Positions 2,684 to 39,880 are shown, counted from the stretch's first letter. The stretch: DNA of 64,000 nucleotides from an uncultured Chloroflexia bacterium (GCA_963801445.1 CAWDEW010000010.1:21338-85337); one strand, 5' to 3'. Translations and numbers: made by a program. The notes: generated from the sequence alone by a model not told the origin.

Positions 2684-4405
2684 GTGTCCGCCCCGTCCGC
2701 GCCAGATCCAGCCGGGCTCCTCGCCCCGCTCCGCGGCAGCGTCCGCCGCGCCCTCGAGGCCGCCTGGGAGCGCGCGATCGTCGCGGGCGCGCTGCCGCCG
2801 CTCGGCACGGCCGACCGGCCCGCGGTGGAGATCGAACGGCCCGCCAACCCCGAGCACGGCGACCTCGCCTCGAACCTGGCGATGAAGCTGGCCCGGCCCT
2901 GCCGGATGGCACCCCTGAAGGTCGCCGAGGCCCTCGCGGCCGAGCTGGCGGCCGACGTCGGCCGCCCCGGGGGCCCGGTCGGCGCGGTCAGCGTCGCGGC
3001 TCCCGGCTTCCTCAATCTCCGCGTCGCGGATGGGGCGCTCGAGGACCTCGTCGCCGGGATCGTGGCGGATCCCGCCGCCTGGGGCCGGGTCCGCGCGACG
3101 ACCCCTCGCCGCGTGAACGTGGAGTTCGTCTCCGCGAACCCGACCGGGCCGCTCCACATCGGGAACGCCCGCGGAGCGTTCGTCGGCGACCTCCTGTGCC
3201 GCGTCCTCGAGGCGGCCGGCCACCATGTCACGCGCGAGTACTACTTCAACGACTTCGGAGCCCAGGTCCGGAACCTCGGGGCGTCGGTGGTCGCGATCCA
3301 CCGCGGCGAGCCGCTTCCCGAGGAGGCCTACCGGGGCGCGTACGTCCACGACCTGGCCCGGGAGGTCCCGGCCGACGTCTGGAGCGCGGGCGAGGCGGCC
3401 GACGCGGCGGGAGCCGCTCACGATGCCGCCTGGGTCGTGGGCGAGTGGGCCTCGGAGCGCGTGCGGGCCGGCATCGAGGCCTCCCTGGCCCACCTCGGCG
3501 TCCGCTTCGACGTCTGGAAGTCCGAGAGCTCCCTGTACTCCGAGGGATGGGTCGCGCGGGCGGTGGAGCGGCTCCGTGCCGGCGGCCACCTGTACGAGCA
3601 GGACGGGGCGCTCTGGTTCCGCTCCACGGACTTCGGTGACGACAAGGACCGGGTCGTCCGCAAGTCGAGCGGCGATTTCACGTACTTCGGATCCGACGTC
3701 GGCTACGTCGTCGAGAAGTTCAGCCGACGGTACGACCGCCTGGTCTACATCTGGGGCGCCGACCACCACGGCACCGTGGCCCGGCTCCGGAATGCGGCCG
3801 GCGCCATGGGCTTCGAGCGCGACGCAGTGGAGGTCCTCCTGATCGCCTGGGTTCGCTTCGTCCGCGACGGCATGGAAGTCTCGATGTCCAAGCGGGCCGG
3901 CGAGTTCATCACCCTCGACGAGCTGCTGGCCGAGATCGGCGTGGACGCGGCCCGCTGGTTCTTCGCCGCCCGGGGGCACACGTCCGGGATCGACTTCGAC
4001 ATCGAGCTGGCCAAGAAGCAGTCTGCCGAGAATCCCGTCTATTACGTGCAGTACGCCCACGCCCGGATCGCCTCGATCCTCCGGAAGGCCGCCGAGGCCG
4101 GGCTCCAGCCCGCGACGTCGCTGGAGGGGTGGCTGGCCGGCGGTCCCGAGGCGGCGCTCGCGCGCGCCCTGGCCAGGTTCCCGGAGGTCGTGGAGGACGC
4201 GGCCGCGGCCGAAGAGGCGCAGGGCGTGACCGCGTTCGCGACGGACCTGGCGACGCAGTTCCATGCCTTCTACCGCGACGCCCGGGTCGTGGACCCGGCT
4301 GAGCCCGAACGGTCGCGGGCCCGGCTGGCCCTCGTGCTGGCGGCGCAGCAGACGCTGGCCAACGCCCTCGCGCTCCTGGGGATCGCGGCACCCGAGGCGA
4401 TGTAG
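2684..4405 (+). CDS. argS: Arginine--tRNA ligase
   Basis: VEFVSANPTGPLHIGN (HIGH motif), MSKRAGEF, YVQYAHARIASI; GTG 2684 preceded by GGAGG. Confidence 0.97.
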   Translation: MSAPSAPDPAGLLAPLRGSVRRALEAAWERAIVAGALPPLGTADRPAVEIERPANPEHGDLASNLAMKLARPCRMAPLKVAEALAAELAADVGRPGGPVGAVSVAAPGFLNLRVADGALEDLVAGIVADPAAWGRVRATTPRRVNVEFVSANPTGPLHIGNARGAFVGDLLCRVLEAAGHHVTREYYFNDFGAQVRNLGASVVAIHRGEPLPEEAYRGAYVHDLAREVPADVWSAGEAADAAGAAHDAAWVVGEWASERVRAGIEASLAHLGVRFDVWKSESSLYSEGWVARAVERLRAGGHLYEQDGALWFRSTDFGDDKDRVVRKSSGDFTYFGSDVGYVVEKFSRRYDRLVYIWGADHHGTVARLRNAAGAMGFERDAVEVLLIAWVRFVRDGMEVSMSKRAGEFITLDELLAEIGVDAARWFFAARGHTSGIDFDIELAKKQSAENPVYYVQYAHARIASILRKAAEAGLQPATSLEGWLAGGPEAALARALARFPEVVEDAAAAEEAQGVTAFATDLATQFHAFYRDARVVDPAEPERSRARLALVLAAQQTLANALALLGIAAPEAM

Positions 4406-32542: not shown

Positions 32543-35500
32543 ATGGCTCACGCGGGCTCCGACCTCACCCTCCGCACCGGTCGCACCGCCGCCGTTCCCG
32601 ACGGCTCGCGATCGCTCGCGCCCTCGCAGCGCGAGCCCCGCCTCGTGGCCGTCGGGCCGGGCCCAGCGATCCCGGACCAGTCGCCCGTGTTCGGCTCGAC
32701 GATGCAGGTGCACGAGTACCCCGTCCAGGACGGCAAGATCCAGCCACCGCTCCTCCCCGAGGAGACGCTCCAGCGCGACCGCCTGCTCGACTGGCTGCAC
32801 GCAAAGGTCCGCGGGCGGCTCGTGCTGATCCTCGCGGACGCCGGCTACGGCAAGACGACGCTGCTGGCCGACTGGACGCGTCGGACGAGGGTGCGAGCGC
32901 TCTGGTATCGCCTGGACGAGCACGACCGGGATTGGCCGGTGTTCATCCGCCACATCGTCGCGGCCGGGCGCGAGATCGACCCGGGCTTCGCACCCCAGAC
33001 GGAGGCGCTCCTGCGCGAGCTGGGCACCCCGCTCACGGATCGCCCGACCGTCGTTCGGACCCTCCAGGGAGAGCTGCAGGCGTGGGCGACCACCGGAACC
33101 GCGCTCGTCCTGGATGATTGGCACGCCGTCGACGACGTGCCCGAGATCCGCGACATCGTCCGGGAGCTGATCCTCCGCGGCCCGGATCGGCTGACCGTCG
33201 TCATCGCCTCCCGGCGACGCCCCACGCTCCCGGTCGCTCGCCTGCGCGCGATCGGCGAGGCCGCGGAGATCAGCACCGACGATCTCCGATTCGACCGCGA
33301 CGAAACCGAGCGTCTCTTCCGCGACAGCTACAAGCACCCGCTCGAGCGAGACCTGCTCGACGATCTGGCGCGCACGACCGACGGCTGGGCCGCGACGCTG
33401 CGCCTCGTCGAGTCGGCCGTTCGCGGCCGACCGCGCGAGGAGGTGCGCGCGGTGATCCGCAGCCTGTCCGGACGCCACGGCGACCTGCACGACTACCTGG
33501 CCGAGGAGGTCGTGGGGCGCATGTCCCTGGAGCAGCAGTCGTTCGTCGAACGGTGCTCGATCCTCGGGGTCGCGACCGCCGAGCTCGCCGCCGTCGCCGC
33601 CCAGGTCTCGGGCGATGAGGCGCGGTCCCACCTCGACGCCGCCGAGTCCTACGGCCTGCTCGCGCGCCGCGGTCGGACCGGTCAGGCCGGCCGACTCTTC
33701 CACCCGCTGGTCCGCACGTTCCTGGAGGGAAGGCTGCAGGACGCCGTCGGCGACGCGGAGGTCCGGGCCACCCACGCGCGGGTCGCCCGCGCTGCCGAGG
33801 CAGTCTCGTGGGCCGTCTCCGGTCACCATTACGCCGCGGCCGGCCTCAACACCGACGTCGCGCGCGTCCTCGCCGCCGCCGTCCCGACCATCCTCGGATC
33901 GGGCGCTCACGAGGAGGCCCGGCATCTTGAAGAGTACCTAGGCGGATCCCACCCAGGCGCGTGGTCCTACGTTCTGGAGGCGCACCGGAAGCTCCGGCTC
34001 GGCGATGTCGCCGGGGCGATCAACGCGGCTAACGCCATTGCACCTCTCCTAGAGTCCGGCGACATGTCCGTTAGCCGTCCCGTCGCGGCGACAGCTCGGA
34101 TGAATGCCTACTACGGCGCCGGCGAGTTCGAGATGGCATACCTCGAGGCCAAGTCAATCGAGTCGGATGGCAGCGAAGAGATCCCCGCGGAGCTTGCCCA
34201 GTCTGTCGTACTTCTGACCGAGTCGATGGTCGATGGTGATTTGAACGTGACTCTCCGGACGTGTCGCGAATTGGCGCGACGGATGTCGCTGCGGGGGCTC
34301 CACCACTACGAGGGGATCTCGTGGGTTAACGCGGGCTGGATCTGCCGAGTCCTGTTCGACTCCGCTGGAGCGAGAGAAGCCGGGCTCAGGGCCGTCGAAT
34401 GTCTGAGCTTCCACATCGTCCGGCCCTGAGATCAGTACCGCGCTCGCGGTCGCGGCGTGGGCCATGGCCCACTCGGGAGATACCAGCGGCGCAGGAGCCA
34501 CTCTGGCGAGAAGTCTGGAAGGTCAGTTCTGGAGCGCTCGGTTCGAGAGCCTTGTCGAGGCCGCCGACGTCCACAGTCCATATGGAGACGCGACCGAGGC
34601 GCGGCGGTTGCTCGACGACGCGGCCCGGGTTCAGGCGCCGAACCCGCGGCAGCGGCTGTTCCACGACTTGGTCAATGGCGAACACCTTGTTCGGGAGGGC
34701 GACCCGAAGGCGGCGCTTTCGATGCTCGACACCATCGCACATGGCACGCCAACCGGTTACCCGGGCTTCTACGTTCGCCTAGAGCTCGCGAGAGTCCACG
34801 CCCGCGTCCGTCTTGGCTGCCTCTCACGCGAGGACGCCGAGAAGGCAGAGCGGCGAGCCCGGCAGCAAGGGGCGGAGGCGGTGTTACCGCTCCTGCACGG
34901 CTTGATTGCCGTCGCCTGGGACAAGGCAGCACATCTTGACTCGCGAATTATGAGACTCGCTGAGACAGAGCCGGCGCTCGTGACCACGTTTGCCGAGGCA
35001 ATCCTGGACCGCAGCGACAGCTTGTCGGAATCCACTATGTCTGAGCTCGCGCGTGTCGCCCAAGTATTCCCCGAGCGATGGCGGCATGCGGCGAGATGCT
35101 CGATCGCAGATCCCGCGCCGAGCGTCCAGGCCAAGGCCGGATTGCTCCTCGAGGCAGTCGGGGATCGATCGGATGTGGCCAGGCTTCGGGAGCTCAGCCG
35201 ACAGCTTAGGGCGCCCTTTGCGAACCCGGACCTTGGGCGCAAGCTCGCGAGGCGCGTGGCCGACCGCGTAGTGGTTGAGGACCTCGGGCGAGTGTCGGTC
35301 CACGTTGGATCCCGAACCATCTCTGGCAGTTCCATTCGCCGAAAGGCTCTGGCACTCCTCTGCTTTCTCGTCTCTCAAAGAGGCTTTGCTGCCTCAAGAG
35401 ATCAGGTCCTGGAGGCAATGTGGCCCGAGTTTGAGCCCGATCAGGCCCTCAATTCCCTACACCAGACGGCGTACTTCCTCCGCCGCGTATTCGAGCAGCC

Positions 35501-35976
35501 ATTCAGTGAGGACACATCGCCCGGGTATTTGCGCACCTGACGGTGAACTCATCTGGCTCGACAGCGAATTGGTGCAGTCACAGAGCAGAACCTTCCGGGA
35601 TCTGATCACAAGCCAGGGTGGAGAAGACGATCCGATCCTCGTGGACAAGATCACGCTGCTCTATGGTGGCCGCTTCGCTCTCGACTTCCTCTATGACGAG
35701 TGGGCGCGGCCTGCGAGAGAGTCGATGCACACCCGCTACGTGGAGGTGGTAGAGCGGTCAGTCACGTCCGATATGAGGTCCGGCCACTTCGGGAGGGCCA
35801 TCACGATCGCAGGACGGGCTCTGGAAGTGGACCCGAGCTTGGACGAGATGGAGAAGAACCTGGTCAAGCTCTACCAGCTGTCCGGCGCACATCGTGCCGC
35901 GGCTGAGCAGTACGCGCATTACGCAGAGACCATGCGCGAGTTGGGCCTCGAGGTCCCGCCGCTGGATCTTCTTTGA
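32543..35976 (+). CDS. Large MalT-like STAND transcriptional regulator: NTPase, helical/TPR-like sensor, C-terminal wHTH plus BTAD; frameshifts near 34410 and 35537
   Basis: KIQPP..LQRDRLL, ADAGYGKTT, LVLDDWH, GWAATLRL, DYLAEEV; C-terminal LGRVSV..RKALALLCFL..SRDQVLEAMWP and LY.G.F..D..YDEW..AR; single-base removals join three ORF-track pieces (about 1140 aa). Confidence 0.85.
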
Positions 35977-36026
35977 GGGGATCGGTAATCTACGAGCGGT
36001 CCAGTGTGCCTAGGTAGGGTTCCGTA

Positions 36027-36056
36027 TTGACCGAGTAGGAGAACAGTACCTACTGT
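36027..36056 (+). promoter_or_regulatory. Promoter TTGACC-18-TACTGT with inverted repeat AGTAGG-N9-CCTACT
   Basis: TTGACC 36027-36032, AGTAGG 36034-36039, CCTACT 36049-36054, TACTGT 36051-36056; UUCG hairpin CTAGTAC-TTCG-GTACTAG at 36068-36085. Confidence 0.6.
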
Positions 36057-36099
36057 CGCGATGACCACTAGTACTTCGGTACTAGGAGGCCGTGATAGG

Positions 36100-36179
36100 T
36101 TCTTCGGGCGCGATGATGCCCGTCCCTGAACTGGGCACTTAGGGGACGGACGGAGCGGCTAGTGCAACCGACCGGCGAA
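36100..36179 (+). ncRNA. Cyclic di-GMP-II riboswitch aptamer
   Basis: P1 TTCTTCGG/CCGGCGAA; ATGATG kink-turn strand; stem CCGTCCCT/AGGGGACGG; loop GGGCACTT pseudoknotting with AGTGC; GAG; TAGTGCAACCGACC; CGC/GCG pairing where the C. acetobutylicum aptamer has AAC/GUU (recalled consensus). Confidence 0.88.
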
Positions 36180-36200
36180 TAAGCAGGTCGGTTTTCGTGT
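36166..36200 (+). terminator. Intrinsic terminator overlapping the riboswitch 3' end
   Basis: AACCGACC (36166-36173) / GGTCGGTT (36186-36193) stem followed by TTCGTGTT. Confidence 0.7.
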
Positions 36201-36292
36201 TGGGGGGTCACGGAAACCCATTGGAGGGCACACGATGGGTCCCGAGTTCAGCGTCAAGCCCTGGTAGCACGGCAAGCAGCGAGTCTTATCGA

Positions 36293-36385
36293 ATGATGAA
36301 GACGCGATTGCTACAGGTCCTCGCGACCATGGCAACCCTCGCCGCCGCCGTGTTGGCTGGTGGCGCGTCGCTGAGGGGTTTCTAG
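36293..36385 (+). CDS. 30-aa putative signalling peptide precursor MMKTRLLQVLATMATLAAAVLAGGASLRGF
   Basis: Basic N-terminus, hydrophobic core, AGGA, short polar tail; sole ORF between riboswitch and HD-GYP gene. Confidence 0.75.
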   Translation: MMKTRLLQVLATMATLAAAVLAGGASLRGF

Positions 36386-36459
36386 GTACCGAAGTCCCAT
36401 TCCGGCCCGGTACGCTCCCGGCTAGCATCATGACGGGTAGCCGCTGACGCCGAGGACGG

Positions 36460-37840
36460 ATGTCTAGATCCCTCAAGCTATACCTCACGGCGCTCGTGAC
36501 CATAGGCGGTCTTGTGATCGTGGTCACGAGCGTTGTGATTCAGCCCGACCAGCGAATCGCGATCGACCTTTCCGGCTCGAGCGCGGTCAATGTTGCGCTC
36601 GGGCTCGGCTTTTGGACCGTCGTGACTCTCGCCGCCTCGGCGTTCCCTGTCACAATGCCCCGCGGCTCCGTCGTGAGTACGTCGATCGCGCCGATGGTGG
36701 CGGTCATGTACCTCGGAGGTCCAGCGGCTGCTGCGATCGTGGCGACCCTTGGGACGACCGAATTGCGAGAGCTGCGAGGTCGCGTCCCCTGGTATGGAAC
36801 GCTGGCAAACCATATCGGGGTCGCTGTTCCGGCAATAGCCGGTGCCGCGGTGATTCGTTGGATTGGCGGGCCGGGTGCGCCCGGGTTGCACGATTTCGCG
36901 GCGACCCTGTTGGGCGGGCTGGTGTTCCATTCGATGAACATCACGCTCTGCCGCCATCAGTGTTGCTCTGCGCCGCGATGAAGGCGTGGCTGGAGTCGTT
37001 CTCGCCGACCTTCGACTCTACTTCCTGTCGGGACTCGCGATTGTCCCTCTGGCTTGGTTGATGGCCCAGCTCTACAACATCGCCGGCGTCGGCTGGTGGG
37101 CGGTACTGCTCGTTGTTCTTCCTGTCTACGTGATGCGGCTAGCCTTGCGACAAGTCGTCGAGATGCGGGAGATGTTCACCCAGACCATTGGGGCGCTCGC
37201 CGGGGCGGTGGATGCGCGGGATGTCTACACGTCGAACCACAGCCATCGGGTCCAGACGATCGCGGTGGACATCGGGCGCGTGATGAAGCTTCCGGAGCAC
37301 GAGATCGAGGCCCTGGAGTGGGGCGGCCTGCTCCATGACATCGGGAAGATCGGGGTGCCGGACAGCGTCCTGCTCAACCCGGGGAAGCTCACCAAGGAAG
37401 AGCGGGCCTCGATGAACGCGCATCCCGTGAAGGGAGCCAAGATCGTCGCGAAGGTCGAGAAGCTGGCGCCGGAGCTGCCGATCATTCGCCACCACCACGA
37501 GTGGTACAACGGGTCCGGGTACCCGGACCGGTTGATGGGCGACGAGATCCCCAAGCTCGCCCGGGTCCTGCACGTCGCCGATGCTTTCGAGGCGATGATC
37601 GCCCAGAGACCCTACCGGATGAGCCCGTTGACGCATGAGCAGGCGATCGCTGAGCTGCGCAAGTTCTCGGGGATCCAGTTCGACCCGGTCGTCGTCGACG
37701 CCTTCGTCAAGACGAAGTGGGCCGACGGGTTCGGGGATTTCAACCGCTCGCACCCGATGCGAACCGTGCCCTACCTCGCCCAGGCCGCGAGCCGGATGGC
37801 GCCGCCGCCCGGGGACGCGGCTCCAGCCGACGCCTCCTGA
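36460..37840 (+). CDS. Membrane-anchored HD-GYP c-di-GMP phosphodiesterase; +1 frameshift near 36950
   Basis: About 6-7 N-terminal TM helices; HSHRV, LHDIGKIG, HHHEWYNGSGYP, ARVLHVADAFEAM; GAGGA RBS; dropping one T in ctc-t-gcc gives ITLAAISVALRRDEGVAGVVLAD. Confidence 0.92.
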
Positions 37841-37852
37841 GCTCGACCGCGA

Positions 37853-39880
37853 GTGCTGTTCGCGGCTCTGATCGTCGGGTTCCTGGCCGGGATCGCGGCC
37901 GGCGGCAAGGTCGACAACCTTCTCGCGGTCCGCCTGCGCTGGGCGCTGGTGATCTTCGGCGCGGTCGCGCTCCGCCTCGGCACCGAGGCCGCGCTCTCTC
38001 GAGGCATCGCCGTCGCCGACCAGCTGCGGGTGCCGCTGCTGGGTGCCGCGTACCTCGTGCTGGCCGTCGGCCTCTGGGTGAACCGATCGCGCCCGGGGAT
38101 GACCCTGGCCCTCGTCGGGATCGGTGCCAACGCGTTCGCGATCCTGGTGAACGGCGGCTACATGCCGGTCTGGAGCGCCAGCCTCATCGCGGCGGGCTTC
38201 CCGGCCGACGAGCCGCTCTCGGCGATCCACAAGGTCCTCTCGGCGGCCGACGTGAGCTTCCTGACGTCGGCGGGGCCACTGGGCGACATCATCCCGATCG
38301 GCCTGGCGCCCCTCCGGAACGTCCTCTCGATCGGCGATGTGCTGCTGGCCGCGGGCCTGGCCTTCTTCCTGTTCGCGAGCCTGGTCCGCCGCCCGGGCGA
38401 GCTGGAGACGCTCGCCGAGCGCGTCCGCACGGGGCCGCTCCCGGCCCGCCCCGTCGCCCTCGGCGGAGTGGTCGCAGACGAGGCGTCACGCACGGTACGG
38501 CCCGGGACCGGGCTGGCCGGCGGGGTGCTGGACGCGGCGTCGGCCATGGACCGCCCGATGATGCTCGGCGGCTCGGGGGCCGGGATCGCCGTGCCGTCGC
38601 CGACCCGGGCCGTGGTGCTCCGCCGGCCGGTCGGGATCCGGGAGCGGGCGCTGCGCCACCCGTACGTGCGGCTGGCGTTGAACGGACCCTTCACCGCGCT
38701 CTGGACGGGCCAGGTCGTCAGCCTGTTCGGGGATCGGGTACACCAGATCGCCCTGGCCGCGCTGGTGCTCGGGACGACCGGGTCGGCGCTGGCGGCGGGC
38801 CTCGTGTTCGCGGCTGCCGCCCTCCCGAACCTCCTGTTCGGTCCGTTCGCCGGCGTGCTCGTGGACCGCTGGAACCAGAAGCACGTGATGATCGCCAGCG
38901 ACCTCATCCGGGCCGCGATCGTGCTGTCCATCCCGGCCAGCACGGCAATGAACGTCACCCTGGTCTATCCGCTGGTCTTCGTGCTCACGACCGTCTCGAT
39001 CTTCTTCCGCCCCGCGCGGACCGCCGTGATCCCGCGCCTCGTGCGGGAGGACGAGCTGACCGCCGCGAACTCCGCGACGTGGATCGGCGAGACCCTCGCC
39101 GATGTCGCGGGCTACCCGATCGCCGGGCTGTTCGTGGGGGTCCTCGGCGGTGCGGTGGCGGTGGCCTTCTGGGTCGACTCGGCGACCTACGTCGCGTCGG
39201 CCGCGCTGATCGCGGTGACGGCCATCCCGCCCGTGGTGCGGACGCTGGCTGATGCCGGCAAGGGCATCGCGGGCTTCCGCCGTGACCTGGTCGCCGGCTG
39301 GACCTTCCTCCGTCACGAACCCGTCCTGCTCGCGAACACGCTCCAGGCGATCGTCGGGCAGGCGACGATCGGCGTCGCGATCACGCTCGTGCCCGTCTTC
39401 GCCCGGGACGTCCTGAGGGATTCCTCGCTCCCGTGGGAGACCACCTACGCCTACATGGAGGCGGTCCTCGGGATGGGCAACCTGATCGGCGGCTTCTTCA
39501 TCGGCCTGCTGGGCGCCCGGCTCGCGAAGGGGCGGATGGTGATCGTCGGCTACGTCGCCTACGGCCTGCTCGTCGCCGGCTTCGCATTCGCCGGCAACGT
39601 GGCCATCGCGATCGGGCTCTCGTTCGGGATGGGGATCGCGAACATGGTGTTCGTCATCCCGACCCAGACGCTCTTCCAGGAGCGAACCCCGAACGAGCTC
39701 CTGGGGCGAGTCGTGAGCTTCCGCTTCTCGGCGGTCTTCGGCGCGATGACGCTCGCGATGGCGGTCGGGGGGATCCTCGGCGAGGCGTTCGGTGCGCCGC
39801 TCGTCCTCGGGGCGTTCGGCCTCCTGACCGCGTTCGCCGGGCTGGCCGGCACGGCAAGTCGCCCACTGCGCGACGCGTAG
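37853..39880 (+). CDS. DUF5317 domain fused to an MFS transporter
   Basis: N-terminal GIGAN..ILVNGGYMPV and LGDIIP...VLSIGDVLL (DUF5317 hallmarks); C-terminal FTALWTGQVVSLFGD, GVLVDRWN, LLGRVVS (12-TM MFS). Confidence 0.85.
   Translation: MLFAALIVGFLAGIAAGGKVDNLLAVRLRWALVIFGAVALRLGTEAALSRGIAVADQLRVPLLGAAYLVLAVGLWVNRSRPGMTLALVGIGANAFAILVNGGYMPVWSASLIAAGFPADEPLSAIHKVLSAADVSFLTSAGPLGDIIPIGLAPLRNVLSIGDVLLAAGLAFFLFASLVRRPGELETLAERVRTGPLPARPVALGGVVADEASRTVRPGTGLAGGVLDAASAMDRPMMLGGSGAGIAVPSPTRAVVLRRPVGIRERALRHPYVRLALNGPFTALWTGQVVSLFGDRVHQIALAALVLGTTGSALAAGLVFAAAALPNLLFGPFAGVLVDRWNQKHVMIASDLIRAAIVLSIPASTAMNVTLVYPLVFVLTTVSIFFRPARTAVIPRLVREDELTAANSATWIGETLADVAGYPIAGLFVGVLGGAVAVAFWVDSATYVASAALIAVTAIPPVVRTLADAGKGIAGFRRDLVAGWTFLRHEPVLLANTLQAIVGQATIGVAITLVPVFARDVLRDSSLPWETTYAYMEAVLGMGNLIGGFFIGLLGARLAKGRMVIVGYVAYGLLVAGFAFAGNVAIAIGLSFGMGIANMVFVIPTQTLFQERTPNELLGRVVSFRFSAVFGAMTLAMAVGGILGEAFGAPLVLGAFGLLTAFAGLAGTASRPLRDA

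Follow-up and report, generated by a model that had tools for sequence, protein, structure and literature searches.

An uncultured member of Chloroflexota carries a c-di-GMP-II riboswitch aptamer ahead of two micro-ORFs, an HD-GYP phosphodiesterase gene and a transporter gene, and this arrangement has been kept across the class Limnocylindria. The aptamer is real and under selection. Its 3′ part shares nucleotides with a candidate intrinsic terminator (hairpin T), and a second, covarying hairpin (H2) lies directly after that candidate. The most coherent reading of the locus is that of an ON switch that would act by anti-termination and provide negative feedback on c-di-GMP, which we consider probable, if not by a wide measure. 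All positions refer to the window, which is the whole 64,000-nucleotide (64-kb) stretch of DNA that was analyzed.

Riboswitches of the c-di-GMP-II class were already known, as were their ON logic and their link to c-di-GMP turnover genes (PMC12564702, PMC11477304). According to reviews, they occur mainly in Clostridia and Deinococcus (PMC9495176), and no paper in the literature searched names both 'c-di-GMP-II' and 'Chloroflexi'. Studies of the class have been confined almost entirely to Clostridia, in connection with adhesins, pili and a signaling system. New here are the fixation of the riboswitch across Limnocylindria, a covarying second hairpin that pairs the U-tract, and two micro-ORFs as the first cistrons. 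An aptamer that is fixed across a class of uncultured soil and freshwater Chloroflexota, ahead of an enzyme that degrades its own ligand, would amount to a direct RNA-based homeostat. The locus offers a simple test case for riboswitch feedback and a platform with an unexplained second helix. It is also an entry to c-di-GMP biology in a lineage that has no cultured model, and one in which two strongly conserved micro-proteins precede the enzyme.

Rfam cmscan, run at gathering thresholds over the whole 64-kb window, returned RF01786 (c-di-GMP-II) as its sole hit. The match (36097–36182, + strand) scores 61.8 bits against a gathering threshold of 53.5 (E = 2.4e-11) and is full-length, covering model positions 1–84 of 84. 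An earlier reading of this DNA, made from the sequence alone (hereafter the sequence-only reading), had assigned the class from its signature motifs and had named the RF01786 covariance model as a check. Both the motifs and the model score bear out that assignment. The RNA has the helices P1, P2 and P3 and the pseudoknot GGCAC/GUGC, with the motifs GATGATG at 36118–36124, TGGGCACTT at 36132–36140 and TAGTGCAACCGACC at 36160–36173. P1 is formed by GGTTCTTCGG and CCGGCGAAT with one mismatch.

A profile search that retained one genome per species yielded 80 related loci, nearly all of them labelled Chloroflexota, Limnocylindria or Limnocylindrales. The leader signature GGGCAC...GTGCAACCG is present upstream of the HD-GYP gene in 74 of the 80, and four of the six loci that lack it have too little upstream DNA. 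RF01786 scores above gathering in 14 of 16 related loci tested, the remaining two being cut by contig ends, and the aptamers of relatives reach 57–69 bits. A DUF5317-MFS gene lies downstream in 77 of the 80 loci and a match containing BTAD lies upstream in 68, with synteny on the same strand. The family order is a STAND/BTAD regulator gene, a promoter, a 5′ hairpin, the aptamer, T, H2, ORF1, ORF2, a spacer, the MASE9/HD-GYP gene and the DUF5317-MFS gene. Thus, the grouping of peptide gene or genes, HD-GYP phosphodiesterase and MFS transporter that had been proposed for this one genome holds across Limnocylindria loci.

Sequence comparison supports each part of the aptamer fold. Among 76 distinct aptamer sequences, 95.6% of cells in the helices can pair and 12 of 22 pairs have changed on both sides, with compensatory change at 8 of 9 pairs in P3. 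None of 500 shuffles reached these pairing and covariation values. In the pseudoknot between GGCAC(U) of the P3 loop and (A)GUGC, four pairs are invariant across the same sequences, and the fifth (U-A) shows one A-U swap (in locus L066) and two U-G pairs. The GCAACCG segment is likewise invariant in all 76, and the window has its AACCG at 36166–36170.

This segment is of interest for ligand recognition. In the c-di-GMP-II structure of PDB 3Q3Z, A69, A70 and G73 contact the ligand (PMC13715770), and by our mapping these nucleotides would correspond to the window's AACCG at 36166–36170. The RNA in that structure, from Clostridium acetobutylicum (PMC13715770), has P1, P2, P3 and the pseudoknot in common with the aptamer described here, and GCAACCG is kept both in the family and in the window. 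However, the window departs from it at two places. It carries G at 36108 and at 36158, where 72 and 73, respectively, of the 75 other distinct sequences carry A. These positions would correspond to A13 and A61 of 3Q3Z, the adenines that stack below and above the ligand, so that both are G in the window and A in nearly all relatives. Closer relatives, with 66–72% protein identity, have the canonical A/A. The G/G/C combination of the window recurs in locus L041, and wherever G occurs at 36108 (four sequences), position 36159 is a pyrimidine. Because of this recurrence and the pyrimidine that accompanies every G at 36108, the window's G/G may be a tolerated variant.

The protein genes around the riboswitch bear on whether this particular copy works. 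Upstream on the + strand, at 32543–35976, lies a gene for a STAND NTPase/wHTH/BTAD regulator (Pfam AAA_16, Trans_reg_C and BTAD). It is spread over three frames, with breaks near 34405–34410 and 35521–35531. In relatives, the regulator is one gene of ~1090–1150 aa, and in a tblastn search the L082 orthologue hits the window in frames 2, 3 and 1. Downstream on the + strand, at 36460–37840, is the gene for a MASE9-type membrane sensor joined to an HD-GYP phosphodiesterase. It is represented by two ORFs, 36460–36981 (membrane) and 36986–37840 (HD_5), the latter matching Pfam PF13487 at 2.2e-38. Its homologues are 460 aa long, and their full length can be aligned to the two window ORFs once these are fused. 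The motifs HDIGK and HHHEWYNGSGYP are invariant in the homologue alignment, and MASE9 is matched in the membrane part of some homologues. DNA alignment to close relatives places a +1-nt frameshift near 36944–36950. The HD-GYP frame is therefore broken in this assembly, either by mutation or by assembly error. The next gene, at 37853–39880 (+), starts 12 nt after the HD-GYP stop and encodes a DUF5317-MFS fusion transporter (Pfam DUF5317, MFS_1 and MFS_3; NCBIfam H+ antiporter and efflux-type families). Its DUF5317 part (37853–38400) is fused to the MFS N-terminus, and fusion or adjacency of the two is seen in 77 of 80 loci.

The two frameshifts in the regulator and the one in HD-GYP fall within 2.6 kb, and all three lie inside a lower-GC block (34000–38000; 63–64% GC, versus 70–76% elsewhere). 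It is conceivable that the locus of this genome is decaying or mis-assembled and does not function as a switch with a phosphodiesterase, whatever the rest of the family does. The clustered breaks, the G for A substitutions at 36108 and 36158, and an unstable copy of the spacer hairpin described below are all in keeping with this possibility. However, ORF1, ORF2, T, H2, the promoter and the transporter gene are all intact, the aptamer scores above gathering, and its G/G/C combination is found again in L041, as a tolerated variant would be. In addition, a transcriptome contig 97% identical to the window covers 36024–36226. Assembly of metagenome bins, moreover, often introduces single-base indels where strains vary. 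On balance, we regard a locus that has lost its function as somewhat unlikely.

Transcription of the leader would begin near 36063. A sigma-70-type promoter is found at 36027–36063 (+), with a -35 element TTGACC at 36027–36032, an 18-nt spacer and a -10 element TACTGT at 36051–36056. Aligned upstream regions give the family consensus CGTATTGACCGG-N18-TATAGTCC, with TATAGT as the -10 of the leader promoter. Shortly after the start, both the sequence and the aligned upstream regions suggest a 5′ stem-loop at 36066–36086 (+), CTAGTAC-TTCG-GTACTAG, whose family form is CTTCCYAGTAC-N4-GTACTRGGAAG. A further conserved element surrounds the promoter itself. The heptamer ATAGGTA lies upstream of the -35 element and its reverse complement TACCTAT overlaps the -10 element (window 36010–36060). 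The pair flanks the promoter in all loci, ~100–150 nt upstream of the aptamer. These heptamers could be bound by a repressor or an activator, perhaps the STAND/BTAD regulator encoded alongside.

RNA data for this lineage come from contigs of close relatives in metatranscriptomes of soil, peat and sediment. The window's own genome is in none of them, and sequencing runs match no more than 0.09 of its sampled DNA words. Such contigs cannot establish that an RNA is absent, their depth is an unreliable guide to abundance, and contamination by DNA is possible. In one run, an organism identical to locus L005 across the leader has a 5′ end, marked by an Illumina adapter junction (depth ~123), at L005 position 3602, which is 8 nt past the -10 hexamer. 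A 159-nt contig, 96% identical to the window, spans window positions 36063–36220 and so runs from the predicted start to 2 nt after H2. Other contigs extend further. One from L005 (3660–4011) joins the aptamer, ORF1, ORF2, the spacer and the start of HD-GYP, another reaches from H2 to 258 nt into HD-GYP, and additional runs also contain read-through contigs. These data confirm the promoter call and reveal an abundant leader that, in relatives, is co-transcribed with the peptide genes and HD-GYP. In several soil metatranscriptomes the leader ranks among these organisms' more abundant transcripts, which indicates that it is active in nature.

The part of the leader that would confer control begins at the 3′ edge of the aptamer. 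Hairpin T (36166–36201, +) is a candidate ligand-controlled intrinsic terminator that pairs AACCGACC at 36166–36173 with GGTCGGTT at 36186–36193, contains an inner 2-bp stem, and leads into the U-rich tract TTTTCGTGTT, in which TTTT at 36192–36195 is followed by CGTGTT. Its 5′ arm (36166–36173) is made up of the 3′ junction of the aptamer and a strand of P1, and in the family consensus the P1 3′ strand (CCGACCG) lies entirely within that arm. Because T and the aptamer share 36166–36173, the two folds are mutually exclusive. The sequence-only reading had proposed both this stem and its competition with the aptamer for these nucleotides, and on both points we arrive at the same result.

Folding calculations agree that T is a strong structure. 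An unconstrained fold of 36090–36215 contains it together with P3. When nascent RNAs were cut at the U-tract, T was within the minimum-energy fold in 68 of 73 loci, with a mean energy of -39.2 kcal/mol versus -28.1 kcal/mol when the T 3′ arm was blocked; T alone averages -14.5 kcal/mol. The family form is AACCGACCGAC...GTCnGGTCGGTT followed by TTTTCGTG. Among 64 sequences, 98.3% of cells in T pair and no covariation is found, since both arms are nearly invariant. The pairing of T is thus supported by conservation alone. A simple terminator scan does not list T, whose 12-nt loop is outside the 3–8 nt limit of the scan.

The U-tract requires separate comment. As UUUUCGUGUU, with 7 U in 10 nt, it is short, and it also serves as the 5′ arm of H2. 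The four U residues after T are almost invariant while their partners in H2 alternate between A and G, a pattern suggesting that the U run is selected for in its own right. The 64-kb window contains just four TTTT sites on its + strand and none on its - strand, and the copy after T is the only non-coding TTTT site in the window that is preceded by a stable hairpin. No other non-coding hairpin-plus-U terminator was found in these 64 kb, and this genome appears to make almost no use of canonical intrinsic terminators. This scarcity counts against assuming that T stops the host polymerase.

Despite that reservation, the overlap of T with the aptamer, the conserved U-tract, the rarity of TTTT in the window and the C. 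difficile precedent, in which class II c-di-GMP riboswitches act as transcriptional ON switches (PMC11477304), together make an ON switch the most coherent model. The transcript would start near 36063 and proceed through ORF1 and ORF2 into MASE9/HD-GYP and presumably DUF5317-MFS. When no ligand is present, AACCGACC would pair with GGTCGGTT, and the resulting hairpin followed by UUUUCGUGUU would stop RNA polymerase. With c-di-GMP bound, the shared strand would be held in the aptamer, T would be blocked, and polymerase would read through. High c-di-GMP would then induce the peptides, a c-di-GMP hydrolase and the transporter, which would constitute negative feedback. Given that the HD-GYP frame is broken here, the feedback arm of this scheme may not work in this particular genome. 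The sequence-only reading had predicted the same ON switch. Its structural basis, the exclusion between T and the aptamer, has been retained. The sign of the switch is less secure because T is without covariation, no discrete end is seen at the U-tract, and a discrete 3′ end occurs after H2. Like this sign, the binding of c-di-GMP and the stop of polymerase at T are inferred.

The hairpin that follows T, which the sequence-only reading had missed, complicates this picture. H2 (36190–36218, +) pairs GGTTTTCGTG with CACGGAAACC and was recovered as an RNAalifold consensus with covariation. The family form is GGTTTTCGTGyy...rrCACGRRGGCC, and the L005 copy lies at 3727–3757. H2 overlaps the last 4 nt of the T 3′ arm (36190–36193) and the entire U-tract. 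Of its cells, 97.1% are paired, and 5 pairs and 37 cells have changed on both sides, values that 0 of 500 shuffles reached. It is therefore a second covarying hairpin placed directly after the candidate terminator, and statistically it is better supported than T. What follows H2 is GCGAGGAGG or CAUUGGAGG, with no U-tract.

Metatranscriptome contigs also mark H2. In another strain, an adapter junction (depth ~50) places an RNA 3′ end 1–2 nt after H2, and the data show that a discrete, stable leader species ends there. No discrete RNA 3′ end was seen at the U-tract of T in the relatives' contigs, which cannot show absence. These observations lower our confidence in the ON model and keep a role for H2 as the effector helix open. 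By that account, T competes for the bottom GGUU of H2, c-di-GMP would block T and so let the full 13-bp helix form, and the transcript would be terminated or cleaved just past it, which would make the RNA an OFF switch or a switch of RNA processing or stability. The clear covariation of H2 is consistent with such a role, as are the competition between T and full H2 for 36190–36193 and the abundant discrete 3′ ends that relatives as well as a window-like strain show 1–2 nt after H2. The depths of leader contigs are 60–270, versus ~12 for one downstream contig that comes from a different relative.

Several features nevertheless make it quite improbable that H2 is the effector. There is no U-tract after H2, and intrinsic termination in that setting would be non-canonical. 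T removes only 4 of the 13 H2 pairs. An end 1–2 nt past a stem resembles exonuclease trimming or endonuclease cutting rather than termination, and the depth of the leader may merely reflect the stability of a structured RNA. Furthermore, the conserved U run is left unexplained by this account. A further, though improbable, reading is that the abundant ~158-nt leader RNA, from the transcription start to H2, is itself a stable c-di-GMP-binding RNA. Translational control by sequestration of the Shine-Dalgarno (SD) sequence was also considered and rejected as the main architecture. The SD is 30–35 nt past T and only 2–7 nt from H2 in either state, and it is not complementary to any switching strand.

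The closest known counterparts of the proposed ON switch are the class II riboswitches of C. difficile, such as the one upstream of the type IV pilus operon (PMC11477304). They belong to the same RF01786 family, and in them, too, a hairpin with a U-tract has a 5′ arm that reaches into the 3′ part of the aptamer. The present RNA differs in its host, which belongs to Limnocylindria within Chloroflexota and has ~72% GC, and in possessing a second covarying hairpin that pairs the U-tract. The genes differ as well. In C. difficile they encode adhesins, pili and CmrRST, whereas here they are two micro-ORFs, HD-GYP and DUF5317-MFS. A loose precedent for a c-di-GMP riboswitch followed by two consecutive hairpins is Bc1 of Bacillus thuringiensis (PMC11218506). 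Bc1 has a long platform with two hairpins, of which just the first is ligand-responsive, and this response can be masked by the second (PMC11218506). However, Bc1 belongs to class I and both of its hairpins are typical terminators with U-tracts, whereas the second hairpin here has no U-tract and overlaps the first.

Immediately past H2 lie the two micro-ORFs. The first, ORF1 (36235–36267), is preceded by an SD sequence, GGAGGG, the two together occupying 36223–36267 (+), and encodes the decapeptide MGPEFSVKPW. ORF1 with a strong SD is present in 70 of 75 loci and has 10 codons in 62 of those 70. Its conserved residues are P3, K8, G/P/A9 and W/F/Y10. The second, ORF2 (36293–36385, +), translates as MMKTRLLQVLATMATLAAAVLAGGASLRGF. 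Its likely start is at 36296, which would give (M)MKTRLLQVLATMATLAAAVLAGGASLRGF, a product of ~29 aa that is predicted to be a signal-peptide-like or single-pass micro-protein. Once variant tails are allowed, ORF2 is present in essentially all loci. Its entropy by codon position is 0.53 / 0.33 / 1.60, and at each position of its invariant G-G-A all four synonymous codons are used. Together, these values are a coding signature and indicate purifying selection. No Pfam or NCBIfam model matches either ORF, and both prefer a TAG stop.

ORF1 and ORF2 also have similar tails (x-K/R-G-F/W) that co-vary across loci. The last five residues match between the two ORFs above shuffled pairings (0 of 5000), by a statistic that ignores relatedness, and in 11 of 63 pairs the tails are identical over 5 residues. 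In the window they differ, being SVKPW in ORF1 and SLRGF in ORF2. In several respects, ORF2 is like Phr, PapR and SHP, the small exported pro-peptides of Gram-positive quorum sensing. It has ~29 aa with a basic N-terminus, a hydrophobic core, an AGGA small-residue motif and a conserved 5-residue tail, and it adjoins a gene for a large repeat-containing regulator and an exporter-like gene. However, there is no sequence homology to those pro-peptides, which moreover have no counterpart of the leaderless 10-aa ORF1 with its matching tail, and the peptides described here are known from sequence alone.

One can speculate about an undescribed peptide layer on top of c-di-GMP control. The ORF2 product might leave the cell and be processed to its last five or six residues (SLRGF here), while ORF1 might act as a leaderless decapeptide with a co-varying tail. 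One or both might be read by the MASE9 sensor or by the STAND/BTAD regulator, with DUF5317-MFS involved in processing and export. If true, the level of c-di-GMP would set signal production, and the signal would tune c-di-GMP hydrolysis. We consider this arrangement improbable.

Between ORF2 and HD-GYP is a spacer of ~80 nt (36386–36459, +), in which the window has TAGCAT at 36423–36428 (TAGAGT in the family). The spacer keeps TAGTAC at the ORF2 stop and TA[GCA]AGT ~40 nt before the HD-GYP start, and the rest is variable. The spacer of most relatives forms a long hairpin (mean z -2.8; 35 of 50 loci below -2), with an outer stem GUACGUU / AACGUAC that runs from the ORF2 stop codon to beside the HD-GYP SD and with TAGAGT near the apex. 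The window's copy is unstable (z +0.39), and RNAalifold found no consensus structure for the spacer on a MAFFT alignment. This hairpin could couple the translation of HD-GYP to that of ORF2, or could hide or harbor a promoter. Similarly, TA[GCA]AGT could act either as an internal promoter's -10 or within an RNA element.

If the spacer did contain a promoter, the riboswitch might mainly control the micro-ORFs, and HD-GYP and the transporter would be expressed largely from their own start site, such that feedback on c-di-GMP would be weak or indirect. The resemblance of TA[GCA]AGT to the leader -10 TATAGT, and its conservation in a variable spacer, would fit this idea. However, the motif has no conserved -35 partner and no TG extension, and it resides in the apical part of a stable hairpin in most loci, as would be expected of an RNA element, for example one for translational coupling. 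RNA contigs also cross ORF2, the spacer and HD-GYP unbroken. We therefore think it unlikely that a spacer promoter is the chief source of the enzyme and the transporter, and we retain the ON model, in which a single transcript would extend from the leader into HD-GYP. The sequence-only reading had envisaged an operon of one peptide, a phosphodiesterase and an exporter. A small peptide gene, HD-GYP and an MFS gene do lie downstream, and RNA from the aptamer to HD-GYP exists in relatives. The single peptide gene has to be replaced by two micro-ORFs, which come first, with HD-GYP third behind the ~80-nt spacer.

Some loci of the family depart from the common plan. In L049 (3726–3799) and L066 (3726–3794), the aptamer is kept and both T and H2 are absent. 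Another hairpin is present directly before the SD in these two loci, a sign that expression platforms have turned over within the family. Locus L071 (2843–4000) has a duplicated ORF2 and ~850 nt of extra sequence between the riboswitch and HD-GYP.
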